From: a virus
Reading direction: 5' to 3' (one strand)
DNA length: 40,736 nucleotides
Virus genome (UHGV): UHGV-2023338
This document shows positions 532-33,477 of this stretch, piece by piece (within the stretch, counting starts at the first letter, position 1; each line of letters starts with the position of its first letter). The translations under genes and the position numbers were made by a program. A model generated the notes under the pieces. It was not told the origin of the DNA, did no database searches, and saw nothing but the letters and a program-made list of their open reading frames with translations.

Positions 532-1071
532 ATGAAGAAAGTTTTTCTTTGCGCCATCTTGGCCTCCTTAAGCTATCCGGCTATCGCCTCATCATTGCAG
601 GATCAACTCTCTGCTGTAGCAGAAGCTGAACAGCAAGGTAAAAATGAAGAGCAAAGGCAGCATGACGAATGGGTCGCGGAGCGCAACAGGGAAATCCAGC
701 AAGAGAAGCAACGTCGCGCAAATGCCCAGGCCGCCGCTAACAAAAGAGCGGCAACGGCAGCGGCAAATAAGAAAGCTCGTCAGGATAAACTGGACGCCGA
801 AGCCTCTGCGGACAAAAAACGCGATCAAAGTTATGAAGATGAGCTACGCAGCTTAGAGATTCAGAAACAAAAACTGGCGCTGGCAAAAGAAGAAGCCCGC
901 GTTAAGCGAGAAAACGAATTTATCGATCAGGAACTGAAGCACAAAGCTGCGCAAACCGATGTGGTGCAATCTGAAGCTGACGCCAACAGAAATATGACTG
1001 AAGGCGGTCGCGATCTGATGAAAAGCGTGGGCAAAGCAGAAGAGAACAAATCGGACAGCTGGTTTAATTAA
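532..1071 (+). CDS. Secreted, highly charged coiled-coil protein of unknown function
   Basis: N-terminal signal peptide (MKKVFLCAILASLSYPAIA), K/E/R/A/Q-rich remainder; RBS AGGAGG 8 nt upstream; 16-nt spacing after previous gene. Confidence 0.5.
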   Translation: MKKVFLCAILASLSYPAIASSLQDQLSAVAEAEQQGKNEEQRQHDEWVAERNREIQQEKQRRANAQAAANKRAATAAANKKARQDKLDAEASADKKRDQSYEDELRSLEIQKQKLALAKEEARVKRENEFIDQELKHKAAQTDVVQSEADANRNMTEGGRDLMKSVGKAEENKSDSWFN

Positions 1072-20390: not shown

Positions 20391-20683
20391 TCCTGTTCAC
20401 TGGCCTCTTTGGCCATCTTCAAATACTGTTCAGGGCAATGCGCCATAACGCGCTGAAACAGTTCCAGCGCCAGATTGCGTTGCCCCTCATTAAATGCCAT
20501 TGCCATAGCGTCCATCGGCGAGATAGCGGAAAACACACGGCCTTTCTCCAGTACCGACCAGACAACCCGACGCCCCTGTTCACAGCTCATGACAAAGCGA
20601 ATGTCATCAATTTCACGCTGTGCCATGTCACGTTGCTTACGGGCGTTTTCTTCTTTCAGTTGATCGTCTTCGTAATCTGTCAT
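20387..20683 (-). CDS. Hypothetical protein
   Basis: 98-aa ORF overlapping both neighbours by 4 nt. Confidence 0.45.
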   Translation of the reverse strand: MTDYEDDQLKEENARKQRDMAQREIDDIRFVMSCEQGRRVVWSVLEKGRVFSAISPMDAMAMAFNEGQRNLALELFQRVMAHCPEQYLKMAKEASEQE

Positions 20684-22359
20684 TGTGATTGCCCACCCTG
20701 ACCACTAACTGCATTCGCCATAGCTGACAAAACACTCGGATCCGAAGTTTTAGCTTCGCTTAGCGTCTTGGCCCCCTGTGCCGCCGCCATCCCCATCGCC
20801 ATCATTTGTTGCTGCTGTTGCTGCTGTGCCCGTTGCTGGCGAGCCTGCTCAACCTGTTCCTGCGGAACAATGACGGTTGGAGACACTCCGGACATATCAG
20901 CGAATGCATCGATCGCCTGATCAACGTTGAGTTTGTCGAGAGCTTCTGGTTTCGCTTGCGCAAGTTGACCAATGAAGTTAACCGTGGACGCCAGACTGGA
21001 CAGGCCGATAGACTTCTGCGCCTGAGCCATGACGGAAATGTATTCGACCTTCAGGGGCATGCCTTCCATCGCGTCAGGCGGTGGCGGCAGCATGTTTTTA
21101 CGCACCATCATCGAGAAAGCGCGATCAATGAGAGGATTAAGACATTCGTCGTTCAGACGCTCCAGAACCGGCCCCAACATCAGAAGTTTTTCTTCTTTCA
21201 TTTCGATCACCGCTTCAACAGGCATCGAGCGGGTATTGATGTTCTGCAACATCATGAACAGATCGACAAAGTAGGCGCTGTTAATGATTTGGCGAGTGTC
21301 CTGAATGTCTGCCACCAGATCTGCTGTACTGGGGTTAACCAGATAAGCAGGCCTGAAACCATCCTGACCAGTAATCTGATCGATATACGTGATGTCGCCA
21401 GGAAGAAGGGAGGCGCGCTGATTCTTGAGGGAAGTCGGAGCAACCATCGGCGGATTGGTGGCTTTATCAATCAACTGCGACTTGCGCTTCTGGAGAAGCT
21501 GCAATGCCTTAACAGGTCCAAGCGCCAGCATACCCGGGCATGATGATCCATAAACATCTTCGCCGTTAACTTCCCAGCGCGGAGCCATAATTGGAAACTC
21601 ATCGAATCCGGACTCACGCAACAACTTGTCGTTATCGCCACCAACCTCGTAATAAACCGATTTGAATGGCTTGTTCTTGCTATCCAGCTTCGATGTATCG
21701 CGGTCAATGTTCGGGTAAACCGAATGCATCACTTCGATCCACTTCTCGTAGGTGCCGCTTTCCCACATGCTTTTTACGGATTCGCTGACGTTATTTAGCC
21801 CGAACTCCTGAACAAGCTGACGAACAGTCATAGAGAACTTGCGAAAACAGGTGTCAACACTGCCACGAGGTGAGTTAGCCAGGTAGTAACTGCCTATCGG
21901 GAATGGCATTGTGCGAATGATGTCCTCATCATCCTCCAGTACCGCCATTGCACCGGTGCTGTATGTGCCGAGGCTTCCGTATAACTGCGGCAGCGACTGA
22001 TAGAGATTCGACTTATTGAACATATCGTTCATGCGGTTCTGCACCGCCTCAAGCCACAACTTAACAGGGCCATAATCCATCATTTCAGGATCTGGCGTAG
22101 CCAGGCGAAACCACGGACGCGCGGGGCTTGTGATGCCTGACATCATGCCGCTGGCGAGAGTGCGCGCCGCCATAGTCCCGGTCGAATCAATAATGCGTGT
22201 ATTGCGTCGATCGTTACGGTTGACCTCAGAAGTCAGAAAGCGGGAACCACGCGGGTTGATGTAATCACTCAACTCGCGCCAGTGCGGCTCGAACGACTGA
22301 CGCTCGCTTTCAAGTTGTGCGAACTGTTTGTTCAATCGCTCTTTAGTTGTTTCCGCCAT
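20680..22359 (-). CDS. Portal (head-to-tail connector) protein, T7 gp8-like
   Basis: 559 aa; C-terminal Gln/Met/Ala-rich tail (QQQQQQQMMAMGMAAAQGA) resembles T7 gp8 C-terminus; GGAG RBS; precedes scaffold and capsid genes. Confidence 0.8.
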   Translation of the reverse strand: MAETTKERLNKQFAQLESERQSFEPHWRELSDYINPRGSRFLTSEVNRNDRRNTRIIDSTGTMAARTLASGMMSGITSPARPWFRLATPDPEMMDYGPVKLWLEAVQNRMNDMFNKSNLYQSLPQLYGSLGTYSTGAMAVLEDDEDIIRTMPFPIGSYYLANSPRGSVDTCFRKFSMTVRQLVQEFGLNNVSESVKSMWESGTYEKWIEVMHSVYPNIDRDTSKLDSKNKPFKSVYYEVGGDNDKLLRESGFDEFPIMAPRWEVNGEDVYGSSCPGMLALGPVKALQLLQKRKSQLIDKATNPPMVAPTSLKNQRASLLPGDITYIDQITGQDGFRPAYLVNPSTADLVADIQDTRQIINSAYFVDLFMMLQNINTRSMPVEAVIEMKEEKLLMLGPVLERLNDECLNPLIDRAFSMMVRKNMLPPPPDAMEGMPLKVEYISVMAQAQKSIGLSSLASTVNFIGQLAQAKPEALDKLNVDQAIDAFADMSGVSPTVIVPQEQVEQARQQRAQQQQQQQMMAMGMAAAQGAKTLSEAKTSDPSVLSAMANAVSGQGGQSQ

Positions 22360-22373
22360 TTCAATGACTCCGG

Positions 22374-22580
22374 TTACTGACCAAGCAGCGTTTTACCGCT
22401 GGTATTAGCAGTTGATGTGTCGCCCTGAGAACCGGTAAGCAGCGTAGAACTACGACCAGCAGCAGCGCGACGGCGACGTGTTTCTTCGTCGCGGGCATCA
22501 ACAACGGCGGCATCCTGCTCCTGTGGTGCTGCCTGAACTTCTGGTGTTGCAGGCACTGATGGTGAGCTACCCATGCACAT
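22374..22580 (-). CDS. Small hypothetical protein upstream of portal
   Basis: 68-aa ORF with GGAG RBS; competing overlapping ORF in another frame makes call uncertain. Confidence 0.3.
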   Translation of the reverse strand: MCMGSSPSVPATPEVQAAPQEQDAAVVDARDEETRRRRAAAGRSSTLLTGSQGDTSTANTSGKTLLGQ

Positions 22581-22670
22581 ATCAATGACTCCGTACGCAA
22601 TTAAATTATTACCAATTTAACCATATATGATTTATTTATCGTAGGTAGTTGACATTTAACGCACAAATTA

Positions 22671-22685
22671 TTACCTTTAAGGTAA
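22671..22685. promoter_or_regulatory. Operator-like palindrome TTACCTTTAAGGTAA
   Basis: Perfect TTACC-N5-GGTAA; TTGACA hexamer at 22649-22654 lies 17 bp upstream. Confidence 0.5.
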
Positions 22686-23008
22686 GCAAAGGGTTCATTC
22701 CGGTTATTAACCTGACTGGCTTGTCGTTAAATTGAACAGGTGGAGTGAGCTTTTATTTTGAGCAGTACGGCGTATGGCACATGCGCCGATAGCGGTATGG
22801 ATACGTTTAAGGGGCACCCTCCCTTGCTCGGGCAAACGAACCAGGTAGCCGGAATGTGCAAGTCGAGCGGTTTTATTCCGCGCACGGGGATTCACCATCC
22901 CGGCGATTCGGTGTGACGCCTCGGAAGAGACGAGGGTACAACGATGAGAGCATTTATGGAGCTGCGACAAAGTGTGGCGCACTTAACAGGCTAAGTGCTC
23001 TCAGCGTT

Positions 23009-23085
23009 GTGGCATTAGCTCAGTTGGACAGAGCAACCGCCTTCTAAGCGGTTGGTCGCAGGTTCGAATCCTGCATGCCACGCCA
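23009..23085 (+). tRNA. tRNA-Arg (anticodon UCU), phage-encoded
   Basis: Cloverleaf folded by hand: acceptor GTGGCAT/ATGCCAC, D-arm GCTC/GAGC, anticodon stem ACCGC/GCGGT with loop CUUCUAA, T-arm GCAGG-TTCGAAT-CCTGC, encoded CCA. Confidence 0.9.
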
Positions 23086-23128
23086 GAATCACGCCTAAGG
23101 ACCGTGATGCCAGAAGTTCCAGGGGCTT

Positions 23129-23170
23129 GGCGGTGATGGTTTCCCTTGAAGGACTATCACCGCCCTTTTT
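23129..23170 (+). terminator. Candidate terminator downstream of tRNA
   Basis: GGCGGTGAT...ATCACCGCC inverted repeat with long loop, followed by CTTTTT. Confidence 0.4.
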
Positions 23171-23200
23171 ACAGCAGGACGCCATTGCGATGACTTCATG

Positions 23201-23216
23201 CTGTAAACCAGTACAG
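23201..23216. promoter_or_regulatory. LexA-box-like motif CTGTAAACCAGTACAG (weaker)
   Basis: CTGT-N8-ACAG spacing correct but spacer not AT-rich; 68 bp upstream of gene at 23284. Confidence 0.3.
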
Positions 23217-23248
23217 CCACGGAAGGCATAACTCATTGCTTCCAGTTT

Positions 23249-23272
23249 GCCCGGTTCGCCGGGCATTTTTTT
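23249..23272 (+). terminator. Intrinsic terminator/attenuator 12 bp upstream of start codon
   Basis: GCCCGG-TTCG-CCGGGC followed by ATTTTTTT; lies between LexA-like box and RBS of gene at 23284. Confidence 0.55.
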
Positions 23273-23283
23273 AAGGTGAGATT

Positions 23284-23661
23284 ATGAACGACCAGCAAAT
23301 CGAAAAAGAAATCATTGAGAAAGGCAAAACGGCACCGCGAATCACCCCGCAGCACATCGAAGACGTGATTATTAGTGAGCACTATTTCACGGCTGCAGAA
23401 GGGGTTCATGGCGCTAATGAGCTTTTAAAACCGCATGAAAGCCCAATTGACTATTACCAGGAAGCGCACCCTGCTGAGTCACTTCTGACCTTCTGCGTTC
23501 TGGTGCTGCGCAACGGATTTACTGTAACCGGAGAAAGCGCCTGTGCAAGCCATGAAAACTTTGATGCAGAAATTGGTCGGAAGATTGCCCGGCAGAATGC
23601 TGTAAACAAAATCTGGATGCTCGAAGGTTACTTGCTGAAGCAGAAGCTAAGCGAGCAATAA
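23284..23661 (+). CDS. Phage N4 Gp49 / Sf6 gp66-family protein (function unknown)
   Basis: 125 aa; C-terminal pattern VLRNGFTVTGESACASHENFDAEIGRKIA...KIWMLEGYLL matches my recollection of this family; AGGTGAG RBS. Confidence 0.5.
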   Translation: MNDQQIEKEIIEKGKTAPRITPQHIEDVIISEHYFTAAEGVHGANELLKPHESPIDYYQEAHPAESLLTFCVLVLRNGFTVTGESACASHENFDAEIGRKIARQNAVNKIWMLEGYLLKQKLSEQ

Positions 23662-23664
23662 CAC

Positions 23665-23678
23665 CGTGACATGTCACA
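23665..23678. repeat. Palindrome CGTGACATGTCACA (copy 2 of 3)
   Basis: Directly read; 4 nt after stop of gene 23284-23661; followed by hairpin and TTTGTTTT. Confidence 0.8.
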
Positions 23679-23820
23679 AACAGCCGGCCGATGAGCTGGC
23701 TTTGTTTTATCCTCATCAGAGGATATCAACGACATTATCCCCTCATAGGGATACGTTTTTCATAATGACCGAAGATTACCTTAAAGGTAGAATCAGAAAA
23801 AAACCTAAAAGGGCCTGGAC

Positions 23821-24561
23821 ATGCTTGAATCACTTAAAGAATACCTATCTTCAACCGTTAATACCGCTGCGCAAAGGGTCAGAAATCCAGTGTTTGGAGC
23901 GTTCGCACTGTCATGGTGCGCCTTTAACTGGAAGTCGATTTTATACTTACTCCTCAGCGACTCCAGCATCATCGACAAGATCACCTACATTTCCAGCAAT
24001 AGCAGTTGGAAAACGGTATTAGCATTCCCATGTGTTTCAGCAATAATCCTGTGCGGCGGCATGCCCTGGATCAACAACGTGATTTCAAAGTGGCAAGCCA
24101 AACCTCTTGATAATTACGATTCGATAGAGAACCACCGGAAGGCCAAGCGCATTCATCGCGCCACACGCCTGCAGCGCCTGAAGGCAAAGCACGATGTGAC
24201 ATACGACAAAGTTAAGACTGGCGCCGAAAAGGACATACAGGCTATGAAGGAAAGAATTACGGAGTCACAGGCCAGGATGGGTGAGCTAACGTCGGAAAGA
24301 GATAGGCTCTCCGATAAGGTTTTGGAATTGAATAAGAAGCTGGAAAACATGCAATCAGTGGCTGCAGCGTTAAAGATTGAGGCAGAAAAGTCCGCCAGAA
24401 TGCTTGAAGATAGGGAGGCCAAAATAAATAATCTCATACAAGAATTAAAGGAAAAAGAAAAGGAAAGTATCGTATTGCATATGGGCCATGAACCCTTGCG
24501 AAAAACATATACATCACAGGCTGAGAGAATGATTGCTGAAGCCGTGAAAAATAAGCAATAA
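23821..24561 (+). CDS. AT-rich membrane protein with two TM helices and long cytoplasmic coiled coil (candidate superinfection-exclusion/abortive-infection protein)
   Basis: 246 aa; hydrophobic N-terminal segments then K/E-rich heptad-like region; noticeably AT-rich codon usage; converges on terL. Confidence 0.5.
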   Translation: MLESLKEYLSSTVNTAAQRVRNPVFGAFALSWCAFNWKSILYLLLSDSSIIDKITYISSNSSWKTVLAFPCVSAIILCGGMPWINNVISKWQAKPLDNYDSIENHRKAKRIHRATRLQRLKAKHDVTYDKVKTGAEKDIQAMKERITESQARMGELTSERDRLSDKVLELNKKLENMQSVAAALKIEAEKSARMLEDREAKINNLIQELKEKEKESIVLHMGHEPLRKTYTSQAERMIAEAVKNKQ

Positions 24562-24562
24562 A

Positions 24563-26038
24563 TCACGCAAACGGGTCGTAATCTGTGATGGCCTTGCCTT
24601 GCTGGTTCTGCTGACCGGGAATTCGCAGGCGCTTCGACACAGGGAAAGCAAACGTCAGCAATAGCGCATCGCCTTTCCCCGGCGAACGCCCAAGTCGTTC
24701 TTTGATATCTTCCTTCGGTTCGATAACGATTTTACCGTCCACGCGAACTTTGTACTCTGCCGTCGACAGGTCGTCCGCTGTTTCCTGGTCATCCAGCATA
24801 CCGCCCAGCCTCAGCCATGTCTTACATGAGTTGAACATCTCCCCACGCTTGTTGAGCATCTGCGGGTCAGTAGACGCGCCACCGAACGGAACAAGTTGCC
24901 ATGTCCTGCCCCAGCCGTCACCGATGGACTTCAGCCCGGTGCCGTAACCGAAGTCGATGAACACCGCGTCAGCCTGGTACTGGTCTTCAAAGTCGGCGAT
25001 TCGCTTAGCCATAATCAAATCGTCGGTGGTCTTGTTGCCGGTCCAGAGCACTTTGCTGTGCAGCCCCTGCCGCAGGTATATCACCGCGTCATCAACTCCG
25101 GAATACGCCGGGTCGACGCCGATAATCACAGGAGCGTGAGCAACCTGCCCGGCGGTAACCACCCGCTTCATGGCCTCGTCTGTAAGGCCTGTTGGGATAA
25201 ACTGGAGTTCTGACGCGTCAGGGAAGATCCCCCGCACGCGGACCTTCACGAAGTCGCTGTCTTCCCCGTAGTCATCAACCCATTTCTGCAACTGCTGTTT
25301 GTTAGTGCCTTCCACCGTCCGGCTGTCAATCTGCGCAGTTTTCCAGCGGTGTTTATATTTGCGGAAACATTCGCGGAAACGCCCGGTATTACGCGTCGGG
25401 TTCCCGAACGCCACCCAGATGATTTCGGTGTCTTCGTCCGTAAGCGCACCCTCAGCAACTTCCCACACCAGATCCGCAATGTTCGACGCTTCATCGAATA
25501 CCACGATGATGCGTTTGCGCTCGTTGTGTAGTCCGGCGAATGCCTCAGTGTTGTGCTCAGACCAGGGTATTGCGTCAGCCCGCCACCGCTTGTCGTGCCC
25601 AGGATCATTGCTGTACATCGCGGTAGCGGTACAGGTAAACCAGTCTTTCGTGATGGCAAGGTTCGACCACTTGATAATTTCCGGCCAGGTCTTCGTTCGT
25701 AGCTGGTTGTCGGTGTTGGCGGTCACCACGACCTTACAATCCTCGCAAGTGGACATGCCCCAGTTGATCAGCATTGAGATGAATGCGGATTTACCAATAC
25801 CGTGACCAGAAGCGCGTGCCAGCATAAGCGGCTGATAGCGCGTCTCTGGATTCTGCAGGTGATCACGTATCTCTCGGAACGCATCGGCCTGCCACTGACG
25901 TGGACCGGTGGCATGTGCCAGTTCAGTACCCTCTTCCCCCCACGGGAACGCATAGAGGGCATAGCCAAGCGGATCGTGAGTGAACCCTGCAATATCCTCG
26001 ATCAACTGCTCTTCAGGAGATAACGCTGTATCTGTCAC
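24563..26038 (-). CDS. terL: Terminase large subunit
   Basis: 491 aa; Walker A-like ASGHGIGKS and Walker B-like IIVVFDEA; overlaps small subunit by 4 nt. Confidence 0.9.
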   Translation of the reverse strand: MTDTALSPEEQLIEDIAGFTHDPLGYALYAFPWGEEGTELAHATGPRQWQADAFREIRDHLQNPETRYQPLMLARASGHGIGKSAFISMLINWGMSTCEDCKVVVTANTDNQLRTKTWPEIIKWSNLAITKDWFTCTATAMYSNDPGHDKRWRADAIPWSEHNTEAFAGLHNERKRIIVVFDEASNIADLVWEVAEGALTDEDTEIIWVAFGNPTRNTGRFRECFRKYKHRWKTAQIDSRTVEGTNKQQLQKWVDDYGEDSDFVKVRVRGIFPDASELQFIPTGLTDEAMKRVVTAGQVAHAPVIIGVDPAYSGVDDAVIYLRQGLHSKVLWTGNKTTDDLIMAKRIADFEDQYQADAVFIDFGYGTGLKSIGDGWGRTWQLVPFGGASTDPQMLNKRGEMFNSCKTWLRLGGMLDDQETADDLSTAEYKVRVDGKIVIEPKEDIKERLGRSPGKGDALLLTFAFPVSKRLRIPGQQNQQGKAITDYDPFA

Positions 26039-26631
26039 TGATTACCATCCTGACGTTCTTTGAGTCGCTTCCTGGCTGCTGCTATGCGATCAGCAATTGT
26101 CACATTCACATTAACATCCAGGCGTTCTTTGAATGCGTTGACGTCGACGTGCTTACCAATCAGTTCTAGGTTCTTCACCTTGTCAGGCCATTTAATTTTT
26201 TTGAGGATTGTCTCTATCGAGTCCTCGTTCATGTTCATGATGGTCGATGACAGATCAAAGCCGCTAAGCGTAGTGCGCCATATTTTCGGCCACTCGCGGA
26301 TTGGCTTAAGACTCCCATCGTCGTTGAGGATATCAATCACGTCCATCTGGTCGATCTCCACCAGGCGCATGAGAACGTAATCAGCACTGACGCGCATTCG
26401 TTTGTTGCGCTCCTCCATCAACTCGGCAATCCGTTTTTTAATGCGTTCATCACGCATCATGACACTGGCTTTAACTGCCGCTGTATTTGGGGAGAATCCT
26501 GCGTTAATCGCTGCCTGAGTCTGGTTTTCAGGCGTTTTGATGTATGACTGGCAATAAGCCTCCTGCATTGCTGTTAGTGGCTTAAATTGCGTTGATTTGC
26601 GTTTATAGGTTTTAGGTTCAGCAGACATCAT
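26035..26631 (-). CDS. terS: Terminase small subunit
   Basis: Start trimmed to Met downstream of hairpin terminator (track ORF N-terminal extension is Thr/Val/Ile junk); HTH-like FSPNTAA region; directly upstream of terL. Confidence 0.7.
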   Translation of the reverse strand: MMSAEPKTYKRKSTQFKPLTAMQEAYCQSYIKTPENQTQAAINAGFSPNTAAVKASVMMRDERIKKRIAELMEERNKRMRVSADYVLMRLVEIDQMDVIDILNDDGSLKPIREWPKIWRTTLSGFDLSSTIMNMNEDSIETILKKIKWPDKVKNLELIGKHVDVNAFKERLDVNVNVTIADRIAAARKRLKERQDGNQ

Positions 26632-26638
26632 AACCACC

Positions 26639-26667
26639 GTGGTAATAGTTACCGTTGTGGTAATAGT
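26639..26667. repeat. Direct repeat GTGGTAATAGT x2 (18-bp period) containing operator-like TTACCGTTGTGGTAA (26649-26663)
   Basis: Directly read; lies across terS start region, between late-region terminator and terS coding sequence. Confidence 0.6.
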
Positions 26668-26673
26668 ACCATG

Positions 26674-26700
26674 CAAAATAAAGCCGCCATAGTTGGCGGC
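26674..26700 (-). terminator. Intrinsic terminator upstream of terS (minus strand), tR-prime-like
   Basis: GCCGCCA-tagt-TGGCGGC hairpin followed on minus strand by TTTATTTTG. Confidence 0.5.
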
Positions 26701-26740
26701 AGTATTCAAAACCCATCAAATTCATCATGCATAATCTAAT

Positions 26741-26754
26741 CGTGACATGTCACA
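26741..26754. repeat. Palindrome CGTGACATGTCACA (copy 3 of 3)
   Basis: Directly read; overlaps stop codon of gene 26750-27091. Confidence 0.8.
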
Positions 26755-27091
26755 CTATTAATTTCGTTTCATGCCAGCCTTTAGTCACCCAGCATTGCAA
26801 GTCACCATTACACGGACATGAATTAACTGGAACTCTCTCGCCGCACTTACCGCAACATTTTCTGCTGATCGATTTTATACGCCCGCGCACGCGTGCATCA
26901 TCCTGGCGGATCAGTAACGCTATATACTCACCAAATTCGTAAGGCGCACGCCCGGGGCGACGCGTGGCACAGTTACGCTCCAGCATTTCAATTTCCTGAG
27001 CATCAAGCACAATTTCCAGCTTACGCACACCAGATGCAGCTTGTCTGGCTCTCTGAGCGGCTTTGCGCTCTGCTGCTGATTTAGCCATCAA
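26750..27091 (-). CDS. Putative DNA-binding protein with C-terminal Cys-rich zinc ribbon; candidate late-gene regulator
   Basis: 113 aa; basic N-terminus, C-terminal CCGKCG...CPCNG...C cluster; occupies the Q-like position immediately upstream of late terminator and terS. Confidence 0.4.
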   Translation of the reverse strand: MMAKSAAERKAAQRARQAASGVRKLEIVLDAQEIEMLERNCATRRPGRAPYEFGEYIALLIRQDDARVRGRIKSISRKCCGKCGERVPVNSCPCNGDLQCWVTKGWHETKLIV

Positions 27092-27362
27092 TATTTACCT
27101 TTATCGCGTACACCTTTACCGGTTTATCGCCGAAGTGCGGATGTGTGATTGTCTTGATTTCATATCCGTCATACGGGACGTCTATTCTGCGGCTGGAATC
27201 GTCGCGCTTCGGATATCCCTTTGTGATAATCAGGCGGTCATACTCCCGGAACATAATTCGCTTATTCCAGTAGTCATTACACAGGCGATACTCTTCCGTT
27301 TTCTCGCCTGACTTCATCTGGTCGAAATATTCACCGTTAACTGCCAGTTGAAGGTTAGCCAC
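27081..27362 (-). CDS. ASCH/DUF3850-like (PUA-fold) domain protein
   Basis: 93 aa; pattern GEYFDQMKSGEKTEEYR...ITKGY...VKVYAIKV resembles ASCH-type small proteins. Confidence 0.5.
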   Translation of the reverse strand: MANLQLAVNGEYFDQMKSGEKTEEYRLCNDYWNKRIMFREYDRLIITKGYPKRDDSSRRIDVPYDGYEIKTITHPHFGDKPVKVYAIKVNIDG

Positions 27363-28545
27363 GGTTAACCTCCTGCGGCGGTTCTGGTAGAGGCATCCAG
27401 TCGGTTACATTGCGGCTCTGCGTTTCGAAGAACTCCTCACCATTGCGGACAACATCAAAAAACTCACCGTCTCGATATTGTGCATAAAGAACGAATGCAC
27501 CATCACATAAAATAATTACGTGCTGACCATCATCAGGCATTTGCTCACTACAGCTTATCCAACCATCCGGAGTTACCGGAGAATTGCCATTTACCAAGTC
27601 AGCTCGAACATATAGCGTGTCATCATGGTGCTGATTGTGGCTGCACCACGTTAATTCGCTTAACTCGCCATCTTCTGGCCATACTCCAGCTGTTTGCAGC
27701 CAGATATGGGCTGGCGCATCCTGGCAAGGTGTATTAACTGGAAACTTGTAAGTTTGGCTTACAGGTTGGCTACCCTGAAGCATGGCAGCGTGGCAGGCTT
27801 CATCAACCATAGCTTCTACGTTTTCGAGAAGTACGTAACTGTACTGCTGCCCACTAACCCATTCTTTTCTGCGAGGTAATGCGCGTGGGTCCGCTACAAT
27901 GGTTCGCAAACGTTCCAGAACAGCAGGCACTACCGGCTCTACTGCCAACCGACTGGCATATTTGTTAATGGTAACGATAAGCTCTTGCTCAGCCTCATCC
28001 AGACAATCACCGATACCTCGCCTGTCACCGTCAAAATCATCGAAATCGGCACGAATCTTGGCAACCTTCAGGATTGCGGACAACACCTCACTAGGAATTA
28101 CCGGATAGTTGGTTGACGTTTCCGCGATTTCCCGAAAATTATTGGTTGACGAATTCTTGTTTTCCCGAAAGTTTCCGGACTGAAGCATGGCGGCGCGGCA
28201 GGCGTTCCAGCCATCTGCGTAACAATCTCTGTGTGTCTTGAAATATGTCACCGCCCTTGGTACATCGTTTACGTCTATTTCATCCGGCACAACCGGCGCA
28301 GGTGAGTCAGCATAAACAGGAATAACGTCCGGTTGCTCTTTATTGCTTTCATCCGTTAAAGCCCAGAATAATTTCCCGGCCGGATGTTTGAAAATATAAG
28401 CAACTGGTTCTGCTTCCAGCGATGCCAGAGCAATTCGTGCCAGTTCTTCCGCTTCTTCTGCTGGCAGTACAACGTTGCTACCAGGTCCGTATGTTTCGCG
28501 CCACTGCTTGATTGTCAGTAGTCGCTCTTTGGTAATAGTGATCAT
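27355..28545 (-). CDS. Hypothetical protein with C-terminal DUF551-like domain
   Basis: 396 aa; C-terminus WISCSEQMPDDGQHVIIL...VTDWMPLPEPP matches typical DUF551 signature of lambdoid nin-region proteins. Confidence 0.55.
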   Translation of the reverse strand: MITITKERLLTIKQWRETYGPGSNVVLPAEEAEELARIALASLEAEPVAYIFKHPAGKLFWALTDESNKEQPDVIPVYADSPAPVVPDEIDVNDVPRAVTYFKTHRDCYADGWNACRAAMLQSGNFRENKNSSTNNFREIAETSTNYPVIPSEVLSAILKVAKIRADFDDFDGDRRGIGDCLDEAEQELIVTINKYASRLAVEPVVPAVLERLRTIVADPRALPRRKEWVSGQQYSYVLLENVEAMVDEACHAAMLQGSQPVSQTYKFPVNTPCQDAPAHIWLQTAGVWPEDGELSELTWCSHNQHHDDTLYVRADLVNGNSPVTPDGWISCSEQMPDDGQHVIILCDGAFVLYAQYRDGEFFDVVRNGEEFFETQSRNVTDWMPLPEPPQEVNRG

Positions 28546-29057
28546 GCCGCGTTTCCTTCTTTCTTATTAACAATTACACCGTCATATATTTCATTAAGGT
28601 GCCCTCTCAACTCCATGCGCCTTAATGCAGATAACATGTAATCGCATTCAACCTGCTTATTTCCAGTAAATGGCTTATCGTCAGGATTACCCCAACAGCA
28701 ATTACCCTTGGGCCACCCATGTACCTTCCGTACTCTTCCGTTAACAACGTGAAGTAATCCCCAGCCAGGTGGTAAATCCTCAATTGAAATAATTCCCGGC
28801 TCACTAATAAAGAATCGCCAGTCGCCCATTCCAAGAGACGGATTTTTACGAAAACGCTTTTTTCTATCTGCCAACAAGTCAGCACGAGAACACTTCGCCT
28901 CTATCAGGCATGATGCTGAATTTCTGAATCCCATAGCATCTGGCTGTTCTCCGGTACTGGTTACAGCTATAAAGCGGTCATGAAAACAAACCTTGAACCC
29001 GTTGCGCTTAAGGAACTTGTACGCAATCTGACAGAGTTCGCGGTGTGTTAACGCCAT
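28542..29057 (-). CDS. Putative PD-(D/E)XK-type nuclease-like protein
   Basis: 171 aa; QPDAMGF...CLIEAK arrangement is compatible with PD-x(n)-(D/E)-x-K active-site spacing. Confidence 0.4.
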   Translation of the reverse strand: MALTHRELCQIAYKFLKRNGFKVCFHDRFIAVTSTGEQPDAMGFRNSASCLIEAKCSRADLLADRKKRFRKNPSLGMGDWRFFISEPGIISIEDLPPGWGLLHVVNGRVRKVHGWPKGNCCWGNPDDKPFTGNKQVECDYMLSALRRMELRGHLNEIYDGVIVNKKEGNAA

Positions 29058-29058
29058 A

Positions 29059-29424
29059 TCACTCTCCTTTGATGCGAATGCCAGCGGCGCGGATTGCAGC
29101 GATGACTTCAGAAACTTTGTATGCCATTACCGTTTGGTAATCATCGTGAAAATCTGTTCGATGAAGCATGCTGCTACGTTCCGGGAGCGATATTTCCCGA
29201 GCATCCAGTTCCTTAACGCGTTCCTCCAGTTCGTAGACCCTGCATTGTTCTCTATCATCAATCAGATATAACCCAAGACATTCGCTTTCTACCCAACCGC
29301 CAAAATCATGATCGTAACGCTCACATGAAAACTCACCGTCACCGTCCTTTGTTGGAATGGTGTAACTATCTAATGGGCCACCATATGTCGGCACATTCCC
29401 CAATGTTGGATGCTCAATCCACAT
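29059..29424 (-). CDS. Hypothetical protein (reading frame remains open upstream of start)
   Basis: 121-aa track ORF; same frame is stop-free for about 70 codons upstream, see findings. Confidence 0.45.
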   Translation of the reverse strand: MWIEHPTLGNVPTYGGPLDSYTIPTKDGDGEFSCERYDHDFGGWVESECLGLYLIDDREQCRVYELEERVKELDAREISLPERSSMLHRTDFHDDYQTVMAYKVSEVIAAIRAAGIRIKGE

Positions 29425-29534
29425 GAAAAATGCACGTCCGGTTATTGGGCAAATATCTGGCCGCCATTGGTTACGAACAGCCTTGGTTTCGGATAATTCT
29501 TCAGCGTGTTGTTTTACTTCCTCAAGCTCAACTC

Positions 29535-29738
29535 TCAGCTTCCCAACCGTAAGAGCAATATCCTCGTTCTCCTGGTCACGGCGTTTGATGTATTGCTGGT
29601 TTCTTTCCCGTTCATCCAGTAGTGCAGTGCCACCGATGGCGTGAACGCCATACGAAACGCCACAAAATTTTGATGCATAGGTTCTGTTTCTACTGCAACT
29701 GCCGCATCTCGCAGTGCCTGATAGTCAATTTCGCTCAC
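29535..29738 (-). CDS. Small hypothetical ORF (possibly 5-prime part of a frameshifted gene)
   Basis: 67-aa track ORF with GTG start; C-terminal third looks non-protein-like. Confidence 0.3.
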   Translation of the reverse strand: MSEIDYQALRDAAVAVETEPMHQNFVAFRMAFTPSVALHYWMNGKETSNTSNAVTRRTRILLLRLGS

Positions 29739-30042
29739 TGGTTGTCTCCTTTGCTTGGCCTTCTAACTTCTGAGTGGTTGTATCAAACTCAAACAACTTA
29801 ACCACGTCATCAAACAGGACATAATCGCCATCAGAATCTTCAGTCATGTCAGCGCCACAATCCTGACCGCACGAGTCGCAACCTCCCATATCAAGCTCGT
29901 ATCGCTTCAGGTTTGCGATATTTGATAAATTCAGCGCCAGTACAGCTAGGTCATAAACCTCGTCAGCGGTATACCCTGCACCATGTCCATACATTTCAAT
30001 GCGGGATATGATTTCTTCTAACCGTTGTTTTGTGATCGTCAT
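29725..30042 (-). CDS. Hypothetical acidic protein
   Basis: 105-aa ORF, tightly packed in nin-like block. Confidence 0.45.
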   Translation of the reverse strand: MTITKQRLEEIISRIEMYGHGAGYTADEVYDLAVLALNLSNIANLKRYELDMGGCDSCGQDCGADMTEDSDGDYVLFDDVVKLFEFDTTTQKLEGQAKETTSERN

Positions 30043-30044
30043 TT

Positions 30045-30602
30045 TTACTCACCTTCCTGTTCTTCCAGAAAAATACGCATAGCCTCAAGCATCTCTTCGG
30101 TGTCATACGGAGACAGCTTGTCACGCAGGATGTGTTCAATGCTGTTAATGAACTTTCGGATTGCTTTGCGTTCAATTTCAGTCAGGAAAGCATCGGTGGC
30201 TGGGGTGTCTGATTGCAGAGACTTTGCGCGATAGTCATTCCACCCTCTTGCATACATGGGATTAACTCGCACTCCATCTTTTACGCAATATGCCTGACCT
30301 CCACGGTTGATAACCTTGATTTCGTCCATAGCGCCAGACTTCAGCCCCGCATTCTCCGCCGCCAGCGCTGAAAACTTCTCGTGTGCCAACTTAACAGCCG
30401 AATCAGCCTGCTTAATTGACTCAATCGCTTTCTGCTGGTCTTCGGCCAGCGCATTAGCACGCACCAGTTGCACTTCCAGTTGCGTTGCCAAATCGCTGAT
30501 CAGCTTTGCCACACTACGCATATCAACGGCACCACATTCTGCTTTCAGTTCCGAAGCCATCTCATGCCCGGCGGAAACTAACCATTTGATATTACTTTCC
30601 AT
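30045..30602 (-). CDS. Hypothetical protein
   Basis: 185-aa ORF, helical/coiled-coil composition. Confidence 0.5.
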   Translation of the reverse strand: MESNIKWLVSAGHEMASELKAECGAVDMRSVAKLISDLATQLEVQLVRANALAEDQQKAIESIKQADSAVKLAHEKFSALAAENAGLKSGAMDEIKVINRGGQAYCVKDGVRVNPMYARGWNDYRAKSLQSDTPATDAFLTEIERKAIRKFINSIEHILRDKLSPYDTEEMLEAMRIFLEEQEGE

Positions 30603-30663
30603 CTTTACCCTCGCTTATCCACATAACTTATTGATTACATTGATAACTAAAAAGATCGTCGAT

Positions 30664-31011
30664 TCAGAACTCTTCGATGTTCCAGCCGCCACCTGCTTTC
30701 TTTGGTTTAACCGTTACCCCGATGATTCGGAACGGATACTGATCTGCGGCTACTTTGGTTTTCACCCTGGCGTCGTCGGTCCAGAATCCCCCTTTCACTT
30801 CGTGCAGTTCCATCTCTCCGGTGGCGAGCATCACAGCGAAATCGGGCGTATAGAACGTGTTGTCAGCTAACCGCAGCTTGATACCCTCGAATCGATACCA
30901 GGCGATTTCCCCTGCACGTTTACGCTGCTCAAGGTGCTGGCAATACGCAGATTCTGTTTTGTTCATCTGGCCTGTTTTGAGTCGACCAAGAGCCTGTATC
31001 TGTTTTCTCAT
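30664..31011 (-). CDS. DUF1064-like protein (small nuclease-fold candidate)
   Basis: 115 aa; pattern KTESAYCQHLEQRKRAGEI...YTPDFAV...ELHEVKG resembles DUF1064 family by recollection. Confidence 0.45.
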   Translation of the reverse strand: MRKQIQALGRLKTGQMNKTESAYCQHLEQRKRAGEIAWYRFEGIKLRLADNTFYTPDFAVMLATGEMELHEVKGGFWTDDARVKTKVAADQYPFRIIGVTVKPKKAGGGWNIEEF

Positions 31012-33323: not shown

Positions 33324-33477
33324 AGCTATTGCCTGATATTTATTTCAGATAATAAATATTCACCCATAAGGTAACAAAAATCAAGGATAGTTACCTATGG
33401 GGTGCATTTACCTGTTGGGTAATATTGCTTTAAATTGAATCATCTACTGATTCATATATGAGGCGATTTTCCAGAAA
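33324..33477. promoter_or_regulatory. Immunity-region divergent promoter/operator region
   Basis: 154-bp AT-rich spacer between divergent regulators; perfect operator TTACCTGTTGGGTAA (33408-33422) plus two imperfect sites (33360-33374, 33391-33405). Confidence 0.6.

Follow-up and report, generated by a model that had tools for sequence, protein, structure and literature searches.

A conserved plus-strand island carrying a structured RNA and a tRNA-Arg(UCU) in phiV10-like prophages

Taken as a whole, the 2-kb plus-strand island found between the terminase and portal operons of UHGV virus genome UHGV-2023338 (the whole stretch analysed, 40,736 nucleotides, is called the window here) is probably an accessory transcription unit that is conserved in temperate podophages of the phiV10/epsilon15 type (Uetakevirus). 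The island as a conserved feature of phiV10-like phages is already known; what is new is an RNA beside its tRNA, a structured noncoding molecule which appears, rather than the tRNA, to be the conserved heart of the island.

Results

The prophage and its flanking operons

The window is a phiV10/epsilon15-like (Uetakevirus) prophage. The region has 97% DNA identity to phiV10 (over 83% of the length) and to O157 typing phages 9 and 10, it encodes T7-type portal (PF12236), GP7 capsid (PF20911) and Bbp19-like (PF25181) proteins, and the order of its head and packaging genes matches that of Uetakevirus (phiV10, epsilon15). The morphogenesis module is epsilon15-like, not lambdoid. The genes on either side of the island are as follows.

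20680-22359, minus strand: portal (PF12236, 624 bits; phrog_332)
22374-22580, minus strand: gp3-like gene of 68 aa (phrog_831), homologous to epsilon15 gp3 and PhiV10p06
24563-26038, minus strand: terL (phrog_2, phrog_5902), convergent with the island
26035-26709, minus strand: terS (PF03592)

The gp3-like gene is the first of the portal/head operon, which diverges from the island. Homologues of the window terL in phiV10, epsilon15 and vB_EcoP_ZX5 carry a terminase large subunit annotation, and a shorter form of terS is annotated in typing phage 9 and epsilon15.

Layout of the island

Positions 22581-24562, between terL and gp3/portal, read in the plus direction. A first-pass annotation of this DNA had described a plus-strand tRNA, two terminators and two accessory genes between the minus-strand terL and portal, a description borne out by ARAGORN, a terminator scan and Pfam/PHROG matches. 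The features, in order, are these.

22649-22677, plus strand: sigma-70-like promoter TTGACA-17 nt-TACCTT, read from the sequence, the proposed driver of the RNA/tRNA unit
22671-22685: prophage-repressor operator TTACCTTTAAGGTAA, overlapping the plus-strand -10 and 91 nt upstream of the divergent gp3/portal operon
~22762-23008, plus strand: structured noncoding RNA of ~245 nt (covariance model R1), directly 5' of the tRNA
23009-23085, plus strand: tRNA-Arg(UCU) with encoded CCA (ARAGORN, anticodon tct at position 35), joined directly to the RNA 3' end
23129-23164, plus strand: terminator-like hairpin T1, 14 pairs, tail CTTTTTACAG, kept in phiV10
23248-23265, plus strand: terminator-like hairpin T2, GC-rich, 7 pairs, seven T
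23284-23661, plus strand: Gp49 / Sf6 gene 66 family gene, 125 aa (PF13876, 121.6 bits against a cut-off of 27; phrog_322)
23682-23701, plus strand: third terminator-like hairpin, after gp49
23743-24566, plus strand: rare 824-bp cassette, an insertion relative to phiV10
23765-23793, plus strand: cassette promoter-like site ATGACC-17-TAGAAT, from a consensus promoter scan
23776-23790: second repressor operator TTACCTTAAAGGTAG, a motif match overlapping the cassette promoter, upstream of the 246-aa gene
23821-24561, plus strand: gene of 246 aa (phrog_4780)

T2 ends a few bases 5' of the gp49 ribosome-binding site, and in the epsilon15 record a rho-independent terminator is marked immediately 5' of the gp49 homologue. 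The gap between T2 and gp49 leaves no room for a promoter, so the gp49 mRNA would have to read through T2. For the third hairpin, phiV10 annotates a terminator at the equivalent place. The terminator scan gave 7 sites in the region compared with 3.1 ± 2.0 in shuffles, so only strong, GC-rich, T-tailed terminators count.

The gp49 gene is deleted in the E. coli UTME-9 prophage. Homology to phiV10 stops at 23742, where the 824-bp cassette begins; of 5426 complete E. coli genomes, 5 contain the cassette. BUCT711 and EC.W1-9 have homologues of its 246-aa gene at this position (41-65% identity), with an operator again upstream in EC.W1-9. In the 246-aa protein a single clear hydrophobic segment (~residues 63-88) stands out, and 39% of the residues of the C-terminal half are charged. 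PADLOC and NCBIfam scans of the 246-aa, gp49 and gp3 proteins returned only weak coiled-coil-type noise. As regards the features expected of a moron, the cassette has its own promoter-like site with a repressor operator over that site, and no terminator before terL, the stop codon of which lies 1 nt from that of the 246-aa gene. The overlap of operator and cassette promoter predicts that the 246-aa gene is silent in the lysogen.

Conservation among relatives

The order operator-RNA-tRNA-cargo between terL and gp3/portal is also seen in phiV10, typing phage 9, EC.W1-9, BUCT711 and SPN9TCW. A search of 5426 complete E. coli genomes gave matches to the island's first 1143 nt in 1029 of them; the prophages sampled share the layout. 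The placement had been called unusual and the mark of an insertion; by the synteny comparison which that same annotation put forward, the layout is the norm for the genus and the first 1143 nt are conserved core, and the claim does not hold. The associated idea of an insertion hotspot survives for the slot 3' of the tRNA, the contents of which vary from phage to phage (gp49, a relative of the 246-aa gene, the two together, or other small ORFs), but not for the operator/RNA/tRNA part, which is conserved. The rare part of the island is the 246-aa cassette only.

A structured RNA 5' of the tRNA

The stretch 22600-23008 was passed over in the first-pass annotation; it contains no credible ORF, yet it is not an empty leader. 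The elements of the RNA, all on the plus strand, are as follows.

22768-22935: core, ~170 nt, at least five helices, defined by covariation
22768-22788: 5' hairpin of the core
22792-22799 with 22842-22849: long-range helix of the core
22844-22862: invariant 19-mer GGTAGCCGGAATGTGCAAG of the core
22887-22901: core hairpin with loop TTCACCA
22919-22935: core hairpin CCTCG-GAAGAGA-CGAGG
22938-22956 with 22992-23010: arms of a long 3' hairpin that follows the core

R1 finds a single copy in the window (144.4 bits, E 4e-43). Across 41 diverged sequences pairing is retained in 97.3% of cells, compared with 24-44% in slid controls, and both partners vary in 11 of the 27 pairs; the compensatory cells number 82 where shuffles give 23 ± 5.8 (0 of 500 reach the observed count). 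In 37 of 44 distinct versions, 10 or more pairs close the long 3' hairpin. The RNA is assigned to the plus strand because many G-U pairs are possible on that strand only, and is considered noncoding because close relatives differ by indels of 1, 3 and 4 nt. Rfam 15 gave no match to the RNA in the window (E up to 5), nor in mEp460, P1, SopranoGao and BUCT708 (E up to 1), and literature searches on the 19-mer, RNAs downstream of cI, the P1 ban operon and put relatives returned no description, a prior one outside Rfam being possible.

Several candidate features were considered and set aside. An N-like, Arg-rich small ORF starting from GTGGTG after the tRNA-less RNAs would give peptides of 4-59 aa, and its conserved bases belong to a hairpin that covaries (GCGCA/TGCGC, GGCGG/CCGCC, CCGCG/CGCGG). 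A degenerate tRNA at the same position was found by neither ARAGORN nor Rfam. A pseudoknot of the TTCACCA loop with the TGGTGAAT 3' tail shows no covariation beyond ACCA/TGGT, and the boxA-like TGCTCT(C/T) lies inside the long hairpin, where the sequence varies between versions and the helix is kept, and is probably a coincidence. The AgvB and AsxR anti-sRNAs (~60 nt) and the Pas sRNAs are different, short, late-region RNAs which have Rfam models.

The RNA is present in all ten Uetakeviruses with distinct islands and degraded in epsilon15: R1 gives epsilon15 48 bits, and the other ten Uetakevirus islands tested (the window included) 144-181 bits. In Tyrion and PAT1 it is intact although the tRNA is absent. 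It also occurs in P1-like and lambdoid phages, in Stenotrophomonas phage BUCT708 and in Stx2c phages, and its core is found in 1840 of 5426 complete E. coli genomes (about a third), with no annotation among the matches listed. An exact search with the 19-mer hit 24 species representatives, 22 of them Enterobacterales, from 12 genera. Of 131 instances, 84 stand without an adjacent tRNA; a tRNA-Arg follows the RNA in 30, and a tRNA(CAU) precedes it in 17. The strand of the RNA is always that of the downstream genes. A terminator does not generally follow the RNA across the family: 52 of 124 loci have one, compared with 47 of 111 control windows. Some records, including those of mEp460 and Ayreon, annotate ORFs of 39-122 aa over the homologous stretch. 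A second scan of viral contigs, with a different conserved block, mostly recovered the same loci.

Promoter and repressor control

The -10 element TACCTT of the proposed plus-strand promoter matches the consensus at 3 of 6 positions (T1, A2, T6), which explains why the promoter is missing from the consensus scan. Its arrangement is kept: in 7 of 8 Uetakeviruses, from four host genera, the position relative to the gp3 ATG is +69 for TTGACA and +91 for the operator, and the sequence of the 17-nt spacer varies among them. In the exception, Klebsiella BUCT711, the operator is at +92 and TTGACG (a match to TTGACR) at +78, so that the spacing is not kept.

The operator motif TTACC-N5-GGTAA, with up to one mismatch, occurs at 13 sites in the window where 0.74 are expected. 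Four of them, at 33360, 33408, 34120 and 34182, flank a cI-like gene, and the motif coincides with most of the annotated 'repressor' sites of epsilon15, including one upstream of gp3. Two operators at 26631-26663 make it probable that the true start of terS is 26628. The operator of the island may serve a promoter of the divergent gp3/portal operon instead of, or besides, the plus-strand promoter.

Elsewhere, mEp460, Ayreon and Stenotrophomonas BUCT708 have repeats that match their cro-cI operators between the repressor gene and the RNA, with a promoter directly upstream; in P1 the RNA lies within the C1-controlled ban operon, 15 nt after trnI; and an S24 CI-type repressor is encoded just upstream on the same strand in at least 36 and up to 63 of the 131 loci (ORF clusters of 36 and 27). 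In every context examined, the RNA appears to lie downstream of a promoter controlled by an immunity repressor.

The tRNA and codon use

A well-folded tRNA-Arg(UCU) had been reported at this place, and it is accepted both by ARAGORN, as the sole tRNA in the window, and by Rfam RF00005 (73.3 bits against a gathering score of 29). It is identical to E. coli K-12 argU at 64 of 77 positions. By inspection, the 13 differences comprise paired changes in the acceptor and anticodon stems together with changes in the variable and D loops, and the anticodon loop CTTCTAA, A20 of the D-loop and G73-CCA are common to both. The tRNA is missing from Tyrion, PAT1 and epsilon15.

The window uses ~6.93-7.1 AGA and 4.1 AGG per 1000 codons, compared with 2.6 and 0.7 in a K-12 sample of 7305 codons, which places AGA at ~2.7 times the host sample and the two codons in a range of 2.7-6 times. 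The carriers of AGA are the tailspike (16), the 246-aa gene (5 AGA, 4 AGG) and some of the early genes; no AGA occurs in terS, terL, portal, protease and capsid, beside the tRNA. Six genomes revealed no relation of tRNA presence to AGA use: per 1000 codons, AGA stands at 7.35 in Tyrion, 7.09 in PAT1 and 4.40 in epsilon15, which lack the tRNA, and at 6.93 in the window, 6.37 in phiV10 and 6.25 in SPN9TCW, which carry it, so that only epsilon15 is lower. The proposal that the tRNA offsets rare Arg codons thus stands as far as the AGA/AGG count, well above that of the host, is concerned; it is not helped by the equal AGA use of the tRNA-less Tyrion and PAT1, nor by adjacent late genes without AGA. 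Codon compensation is plausible, if weakly so, from these counts. The tRNA would add AGA decoding capacity, and it seems dispensable, being absent from relatives with an equal AGA load.

Discussion

We favour the reading of the island as a repressor-controlled accessory unit of this genus, which would be silent in the lysogen and fire on induction or infection. RNase P cleaves at the 5' ends of tRNAs as a matter of general tRNA biology, and an early transcript of the island would be cut there to leave a mature tRNA and an RNA with a defined 3' end. The RNA always shares the strand of the genes that follow it and has an early promoter under repressor control upstream in Uetakeviruses, lambdoids, the Stenotrophomonas phage and P1, a position that points to an early role. 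Since epsilon15 is viable with a degraded RNA and no tRNA, neither is essential.

The island has also been read as an unusual insertion hotspot, the essential content of which is a horizontally acquired tRNA-Arg(UCU) that offsets AGA/AGG in late or moron genes. The tRNA is real, the AGA/AGG excess over the host sample is real, AGA is concentrated in the tailspike and the 246-aa gene, and the slot after the tRNA is variable. We nevertheless consider this reading unlikely, given that the layout is the genus norm with 1029 E. coli genomes behind it, that Tyrion and PAT1 are AGA-rich and lack the tRNA, that the head and terminase genes are AGA-free, and that it leaves out the RNA, which is better conserved than the tRNA. 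Phage tRNAs that replace cleaved host tRNAs are known from T5-like phages, and the tRNA could in principle be a nuclease-resistant stand-in for host tRNA-Arg cut by host or competitor nucleases rather than a codon supply. This would suit the 13 differences from argU, which reach into the acceptor and anticodon stems and leave the anticodon loop unchanged, but a diverged paralogue would show stem changes too, the tRNA is often lost in relatives, and the island offers no nuclease or defence context (PADLOC hits to its proteins being coiled-coil noise), so we rate the idea as improbable. It is hardly credible that 22600-23008 is a meaningless tRNA leader or protein-coding. ORFs of 39-122 aa are annotated in some records, those of mEp460 and Ayreon among them, and a 91-aa minus-strand ORF does exist at 22707-22982; this ORF has no PHROG or Pfam match, however, close relatives differ by the indels of 1, 3 and 4 nt, helix substitutions are compensatory and include G-U pairs on the plus strand only, and the element is kept without any tRNA at 84 of 131 loci.

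Two ways in which the RNA might act can be weighed against each other. It could be a cis-acting leader for terminator read-through into the downstream genes, like put of HK022, or a regulated attenuator. In the operator-controlled early-left operons of mEp460, Ayreon and BUCT708 the inferred start is 30-100 nt upstream of the RNA. Its strand is in all cases that of the downstream genes, and Pfam scans of early-left proteins from the lambdoid carriers recognised no N-like gene (one protein without a family, the others DUF2303 and YfbR-like). Two terminator-like hairpins stand between the RNA/tRNA and gp49, with T2 abutting the gp49 ribosome-binding site; a strong terminator follows the RNA in BUCT708; and HK022 put RNA provides a precedent, as it needs no phage protein and is active untethered (PMC9378689). 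Against this, R1 has no match in HK022 24000-31000, the early-left/PL region, the RNA is ~3 times the size of put, each phage has a single copy rather than one per early operon, the P1 RNA is 2.4 kb from its promoter, downstream terminators are not enriched across the family, and epsilon15 retains T2 and gp49 with a degraded RNA. The leader is for us a possibility on the doubtful side, and we would place at the same level a stable trans-acting early RNA (a decoy, sponge, anti-defence factor or binder of a host protein) released by tRNA-processing enzymes. The joint to the 5' end of tRNA-Arg is exact in Uetakeviruses and in P1-like phages the RNA starts 15 nt after a tRNA; adjacency on either side would define the ends of the RNA through RNase P and 3' trimming. 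Long invariant single-stranded blocks common to Escherichia, Klebsiella and Stenotrophomonas phages suggest a conserved host or defence target, the contexts yielded no phage protein family that co-occurs with the RNA, and the P1 c4, P4 CI (RNase P) and T4 stable RNAs are precedents. A trans-acting RNA has to contend with 84 of 131 copies that have neither an adjacent tRNA nor a tRNA-like match after them and with pairing of hairpin loop and 3' tail that lacks covariation, and the analysis found no target or partner for it.

Our tentative proposal, to which we would give somewhat less than an even chance, is that the RNA is a previously undescribed structured class which temperate phages of unrelated kinds make when derepressed (epsilon15-like podophages, P1-like phage-plasmids, N-less lambdoids and a Stenotrophomonas siphophage). 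It would act either on transcription, as a processivity or switch element that needs no protein, or, once released, by disabling a host or defence factor that is conserved; the tRNA would serve partly as a processing handle. If functional, the RNA would fill a gap in the early programme of several textbook temperate phages. Among its carriers are the model phages P1, phiV10 and the Stx2c phages, and genome annotations place spurious ORFs over it.

Comparison with known systems

The closest counterparts are the islands of phiV10, O157 typing phages 9 and 10, vB_EcoP_ZX5, SPN9TCW and epsilon15, which are like that of the window in position, orientation, operator, leader, tRNA-Arg(UCU), terminators and gp49-family gene. 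Leader and tRNA are 98.6% identical to those of phiV10, and what sets the window apart from phiV10-type islands is the additional 824-bp cassette that encodes the 246-aa protein. In epsilon15 the tRNA and most of the RNA are gone (window 22803-23134 is missing there). The tRNA is annotated in several Uetakevirus records, and one tRNA has been reported for ZX5 (PMC9782041). The phiV10 record annotates no tRNA and has an antisense ORF, PhiV10p04, over it, and no Uetakevirus record examined annotates the leader as an RNA.

The Stx/lambdoid phages (ileZ-argN-argO) and P1 (tRNA-Asn, -Thr and -Ile) resemble the window as temperate enterobacterial phages with tRNAs for rare codons (AGA/AGG, AUA), and the tRNA-Ile(CAU) gene of P1 directly adjoins a member of the same RNA family. 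The tRNAs of Stx phages lie in the late region downstream of Q; the tRNA of the window, unlike these, has packaging genes on one side and head genes on the other, comes under an immunity-repressor operator and is joined to an RNA. The c4 RNAs of P1/P7 and the P4 CI RNA are matured by RNase P, and the tRNA cluster of T4 includes stable RNAs without an assigned role. The resemblance of our RNA to these would be that of small stable phage RNAs with ends made by the tRNA-processing machinery or with tRNA co-transcription; it has no sequence or model similarity to them, is 3 times longer than c4, and is missed by the Rfam C4, isrK and tRNA models. A C4 family match (83.6 bits) is present elsewhere in mEp460.

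The likeness to lambda nut is by eye only: CCUCG-GAAGAGA-CGAGG resembles boxB and TGCTCT(C/T) resembles boxA, the boxA-like bases sitting in a hairpin. The sites putL and putR of HK022 consist of ~70 nt with two stems and follow both PL and PR, whereas the RNA described here has a ~170-nt core plus a 3' domain and occurs once per phage. Like putL and putR, it is folded and encoded shortly after an early promoter under repressor control, in phages without a recognised N-like gene.

Layout and conservation of the island

The window is, on nucleotide similarity, a Uetakevirus prophage; the region shares 97% identity with phiV10 and the O157 typing phages 9 and 10, and about 80% with epsilon15 of Salmonella. 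E. coli UTME-9 contains a close relative, a prophage integrated beside guaA, and integration next to guaA has been published for vB_EcoP_ZX5 (PMC9782041). The first-pass annotation placed a plus-strand tRNA, terminators and two genes between terS-terL and portal on the minus strand, a layout borne out by ARAGORN, Rfam, profile searches and a terminator scan:

26035-26709, minus: terS (PF03592 profile match)
24563-26038, minus: terL (phrog_2 and phrog_5902 profile matches)
23821-24561, plus: gene for a 246-aa protein (phrog_4780)
23682-23701, plus: terminator-like hairpin (terminator scan)
23284-23661, plus: gp49, Gp49/Sf6-gene-66 family (PF13876, 121.6 bits)
23248-23265, plus: terminator-like hairpin T2 (terminator scan)
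23129-23164, plus: terminator-like hairpin T1 (terminator scan)
23009-23085, plus: tRNA-Arg, anticodon tct (ARAGORN; sole tRNA in the 40.7-kb window)
22762-23008, plus: structured noncoding RNA (the leader)
22374-22580, minus: gp3-like 68-aa gene (profile search)
20680-22359, minus: portal (PF12236, 624 bits)
Beyond portal, minus: Bbp19-like protein, protease and GP7-type major capsid protein (profile searches)

All credible features between terL and gp3 are on the plus strand, and the Rfam tRNA model agrees with ARAGORN on 23009-23085 (73.3 bits against a gathering score of 29).

The island is thus real but ordinary. Its placement had been called unusual, which the relatives contradict: phiV10, typing phage 9 and two E. 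coli prophages that were sampled have leader, tRNA-Arg and gp49 in this interval between terL and gp3/portal, while EC.W1-9, Klebsiella BUCT711 and Salmonella SPN9TCW keep leader and tRNA with a different cargo gene. Of 5426 complete E. coli genomes, 1029 contain matches to the first 1143 nt (leader, tRNA, gp49). The position is the norm for the genus and, by the criterion that the first-pass annotation set itself, this part is conserved core content. What survives of the proposed insertion hotspot is the cargo, which does vary.

What follows the tRNA position
phiV10 and its close relatives: gp49 alone
UTME-9: 246-aa gene alone; gp49 precisely deleted
BUCT711, EC.W1-9: genes homologous to the 246-aa one (263 and 201 aa, 41-65% identity)
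SPN9TCW, Tyrion, PAT1: small ORFs of other kinds
This window: gp49 and 246-aa gene

The 246-aa gene lies in an 824-bp cassette (23743-24566) that is an insertion relative to phiV10 and occurs in only 5 of the 5426 genomes. Family scans returned no informative family for its product, a protein with a single clear hydrophobic segment whose C-terminal half is highly charged and resembles a coiled coil. Its stop codon and that of terL, on opposite strands, are 1 nt apart (24559-24565) with no terminator between them; transcription of either gene would enter the other antisense.

Several gene models deserve comment. Two repressor operators (26631-26663) fall inside the longest terS ORF (224 aa, TTG start at 26709). 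They lie just ahead of a 197-aa form with its start at 26628, which is the likelier gene and the form annotated in typing phage 9 and epsilon15. The phiV10 record (DQ126339.2) leaves the tRNA-Arg at 3909-3985 unannotated and carries instead an antisense hypothetical ORF, PhiV10p04, whose 83-aa equivalent here (23015-23266, minus) is almost certainly spurious.

A widespread structured RNA

It is the RNA that makes the region matter beyond the earlier reading. Profile searches found no ORF with a family match in the 400 nt that separate gp3 from the tRNA. In a sensitive DNA search, window 22767-23012 proved about 82% identical to unannotated stretches in mEp460, cdtI, Ayreon, 2H10 and Stx2c phages, the relatives differing by indels of 1, 3 and 4 nt. 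These lambdoid copies lie just downstream of the cI repressor gene with no tRNA following, and the homology stops at ...GCGTTGTGG, reaching the first four tRNA bases in the window. Two ORFs placed over the RNA by annotation, mEp460_037 of mEp460 and SJJBTUD_0037 of Ayreon, look spurious.

Further members are present in P1, P7, D6, SJ46 and RCS47, in Klebsiella phage SopranoGao and in Stenotrophomonas phage BUCT708; the P1 copy (71023-71191) begins 15 nt after trnI, upstream of ban. An invariant 19-mer, GGTAGCCGGAATGTGCAAG (window 22844-22862), has matches in at least 120 IMG/VR contigs. Pooled with the phage and prophage loci of the family, these give 109 distinct versions, which form 41 clusters at 88% identity. 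The 19-mer also matches 24 species-representative genomes, 22 of them Enterobacterales from 12 genera; two metagenome bins labelled Oscillospiraceae and Bacillota contain the exact enterobacterial 19-mer and are probably mis-binned enterobacterial phage contigs. The core of the RNA occurs in 1840 of 5426 complete E. coli genomes, 554 of the places being on plasmids, and none of the matches listed carries an annotation.

Structure was named on the 41 cluster representatives and comprises the following elements:

5′ hairpin, CGGCRUAU-GGCAC-AUGYGYCG, with an invariant long-range pairing GCACAU/AUGUGC as a possible alternative
Long-range helix enclosing a variable hairpin
Hairpin with loop UUCACCA
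Hairpin CCUCG-GAAGAGA-CGAGG
Possible 4-bp loop pseudoknot, its helix invariant

In this structure 97.3% of cells pair, against 24-44% in slid controls, and 11 of the 27 pairs vary on both sides. Compensatory cells number 82, compared with 23 ± 5.8 in shuffles, none of 500 reaching 82. The pseudoknot helix, being invariant, is one on which covariation is uninformative either way. A long 3′ hairpin (arms 22938-22956 and 22992-23010) is closed by 10 or more pairs in 37 of 44 distinct versions, and its stem varies in sequence while the helix is maintained. Frequent G-U pairs establish that the plus strand is the one transcribed.

R1, the covariance model of the family, finds a single copy in the window (144.4 bits, E = 4e-43). 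Its scores are 144-181 bits across the ten tested Uetakevirus islands, this one counted and epsilon15 excepted. The latter scores just 48 bits because a 332-nt deletion, equivalent to window 22803-23134, has removed most of the RNA, the tRNA and T1. An ‘RNaseIII’ mRNA processing site in the epsilon15 record (2720-2819) lies beside what is left of the RNA (2612-2742) and overlaps it in part. The tRNA is absent from Tyrion, PAT1 and epsilon15. Across the family, tRNA-Arg(UCU) lies directly 3′ of the RNA in 30 of 131 members (those with flanks compared look Uetakevirus-like), tRNA(CAU) directly 5′ in 17, which are P1-like, and in 84 no tRNA is adjacent. It would therefore seem to be the RNA, not the tRNA, that forms the conserved heart of the island. 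R1 has no match in a 25-kb K-12 sample, Rfam 15 gave none at E up to 5 for the window or up to 1 for four relatives, and our literature searches found no description; this is apparently a structured phage RNA without prior description, very widespread and under repressor control.

Predicted repressor control

The motif TTACC-N5-GGTAA, with at most one mismatch, occurs at 13 window sites where 0.74 are expected:

3863, 6060, 22671, 23776, 26631, 26649, 31015, 31077, 33023, 33360, 33408, 34120, 34182

Operators flank the cI-like gene, and others lie upstream of terS, of gp3/portal (22671-22685) and of the tailspike, with one at 23776-23790. This distribution suggests direct action of the repressor at the promoters of structural genes. 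The motif coincides with most ‘repressor’ binding sites annotated in the epsilon15 record, which likewise places such sites at structural-gene promoters. The 246-aa gene has an operator over its own promoter, as in UTME-9 and EC.W1-9, which predicts an induced function rather than that of a classical prophage-expressed moron.

Of eight Uetakeviruses from four host genera, seven have TTGACA at +69 and the operator at +91 relative to the gp3 ATG; the 17-nt promoter spacer differs in sequence and the left half of the operator supplies a TACCTT -10 element. BUCT711 has the operator at +92 and its TTGACR match (TTGACG) at +78, so the spacing is not kept there. In SPN9TCW the RNA begins roughly 35 nt past the predicted transcription start. 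An 11-nt exact direct repeat, AAATTATTACC, occupies 22603-22613 and 22665-22675 between gp3 and the RNA. The copy at 22665-22675 extends into the operator; the other is inside a block nearly identical in the Uetakeviruses compared (ATTAAATTATTACCAATTTAACCA), and may thus be a half-site or an element of the gp3/portal promoter.

Elsewhere, an S24 CI-type repressor lies immediately upstream on the same strand at no fewer than 36 of the 131 loci and at as many as 63 (two ORF clusters, of 36 and 27 loci). mEp460, Ayreon and BUCT708 have repeats with matches to the cro-cI operators between repressor gene and RNA and a PL-type promoter 30-100 nt upstream of the RNA, and in P1 the RNA is within the ban operon, controlled by the C1 operator Op72. 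In four unrelated immunity systems (Uetakevirus, lambdoid, BUCT708 and P1), the RNA thus follows an early promoter controlled by the repressor and shares its strand with the genes downstream. mEp460 also gives strong matches to Rfam C4 antisense RNA (83.6 bits) and isrK (67 bits) at 706-894 (minus), beside an antirepressor gene. A lambdoid phage with the new RNA at PL, it contains in this stretch an immI module of the P1 type.

The tRNA and codon use

Aligned with host argU, the phage tRNA is identical at 64 of 77 positions. Inspection shows that the two differ by paired changes in the acceptor and anticodon stems and at sites within the variable and D loops, whilst the anticodon loop, A20 and G73-CCA are identical. 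Compensation for rare Arg codons had been proposed, and AGA and AGG are indeed commoner in the phage than in host genes.

Arginine codons per 1000, hand-picked or annotated genes
This window: AGA 7.1, AGG 4.1
K-12 sample (7305 codons): AGA 2.6, AGG 0.7
guaA, guaB, xseA beside a related prophage: AGA 0, AGG 0

The AGA codons are located in the low-GC tailspike gene (16), the 246-aa gene (5, with 4 AGG) and some early genes; the count found none in terS, terL, gp3, portal, protease or capsid. The tailspike gene (3211-5955, minus) has a GC content of 40%, compared with 49% for the prophage, and looks like a host-range module acquired by recent exchange; with 16 of 89 AGA codons, it is the largest single consumer of the tRNA's codon.

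AGA per 1000 codons in six genomes, one uniform ORF caller
This window, tRNA present: 6.93
phiV10, tRNA present: 6.37
SPN9TCW, tRNA present: 6.25
Tyrion, tRNA absent: 7.35
PAT1, tRNA absent: 7.09
epsilon15, tRNA absent: 4.40

A tight link between tRNA presence and AGA use is unsupported among these six. Extra AGA decoding is a reasonable benefit of the tRNA, but compensation is weakened as its explanation by the equally AGA-rich, tRNA-less Tyrion and PAT1 and by the AGA-free head and terminase genes. The tRNA is dispensable and does not track AGA demand.

Possible roles of the RNA

From the parts, their order, their conservation and the RNA structure, all observed, we infer a course of transcription and processing. 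Derepression would allow transcription to start near 22684 and pass through RNA and tRNA. RNase P matures the 5′ ends of all tRNAs, and a cut at 23008/23009 would release both. Most transcripts would end at T1 or T2, and as T2 ends a few bases before the gp49 ribosome-binding site, gp49 could be expressed by read-through only.

Two roles, to which we give about equal weight, would fit this scheme. The RNA may be released from the early transcript to act in trans, which would explain both its tRNA junctions and its long invariant unpaired blocks. Alternatively, it may be a leader acting in cis to control read-through, in the manner of put in phage HK022. It is not a put homologue, since R1 has no match in the HK022 early-left region, and several features of put membership are lacking. 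The likeness proposed by the cis-acting role is to an element that functions without a protein and without a tether (PMC9378689).
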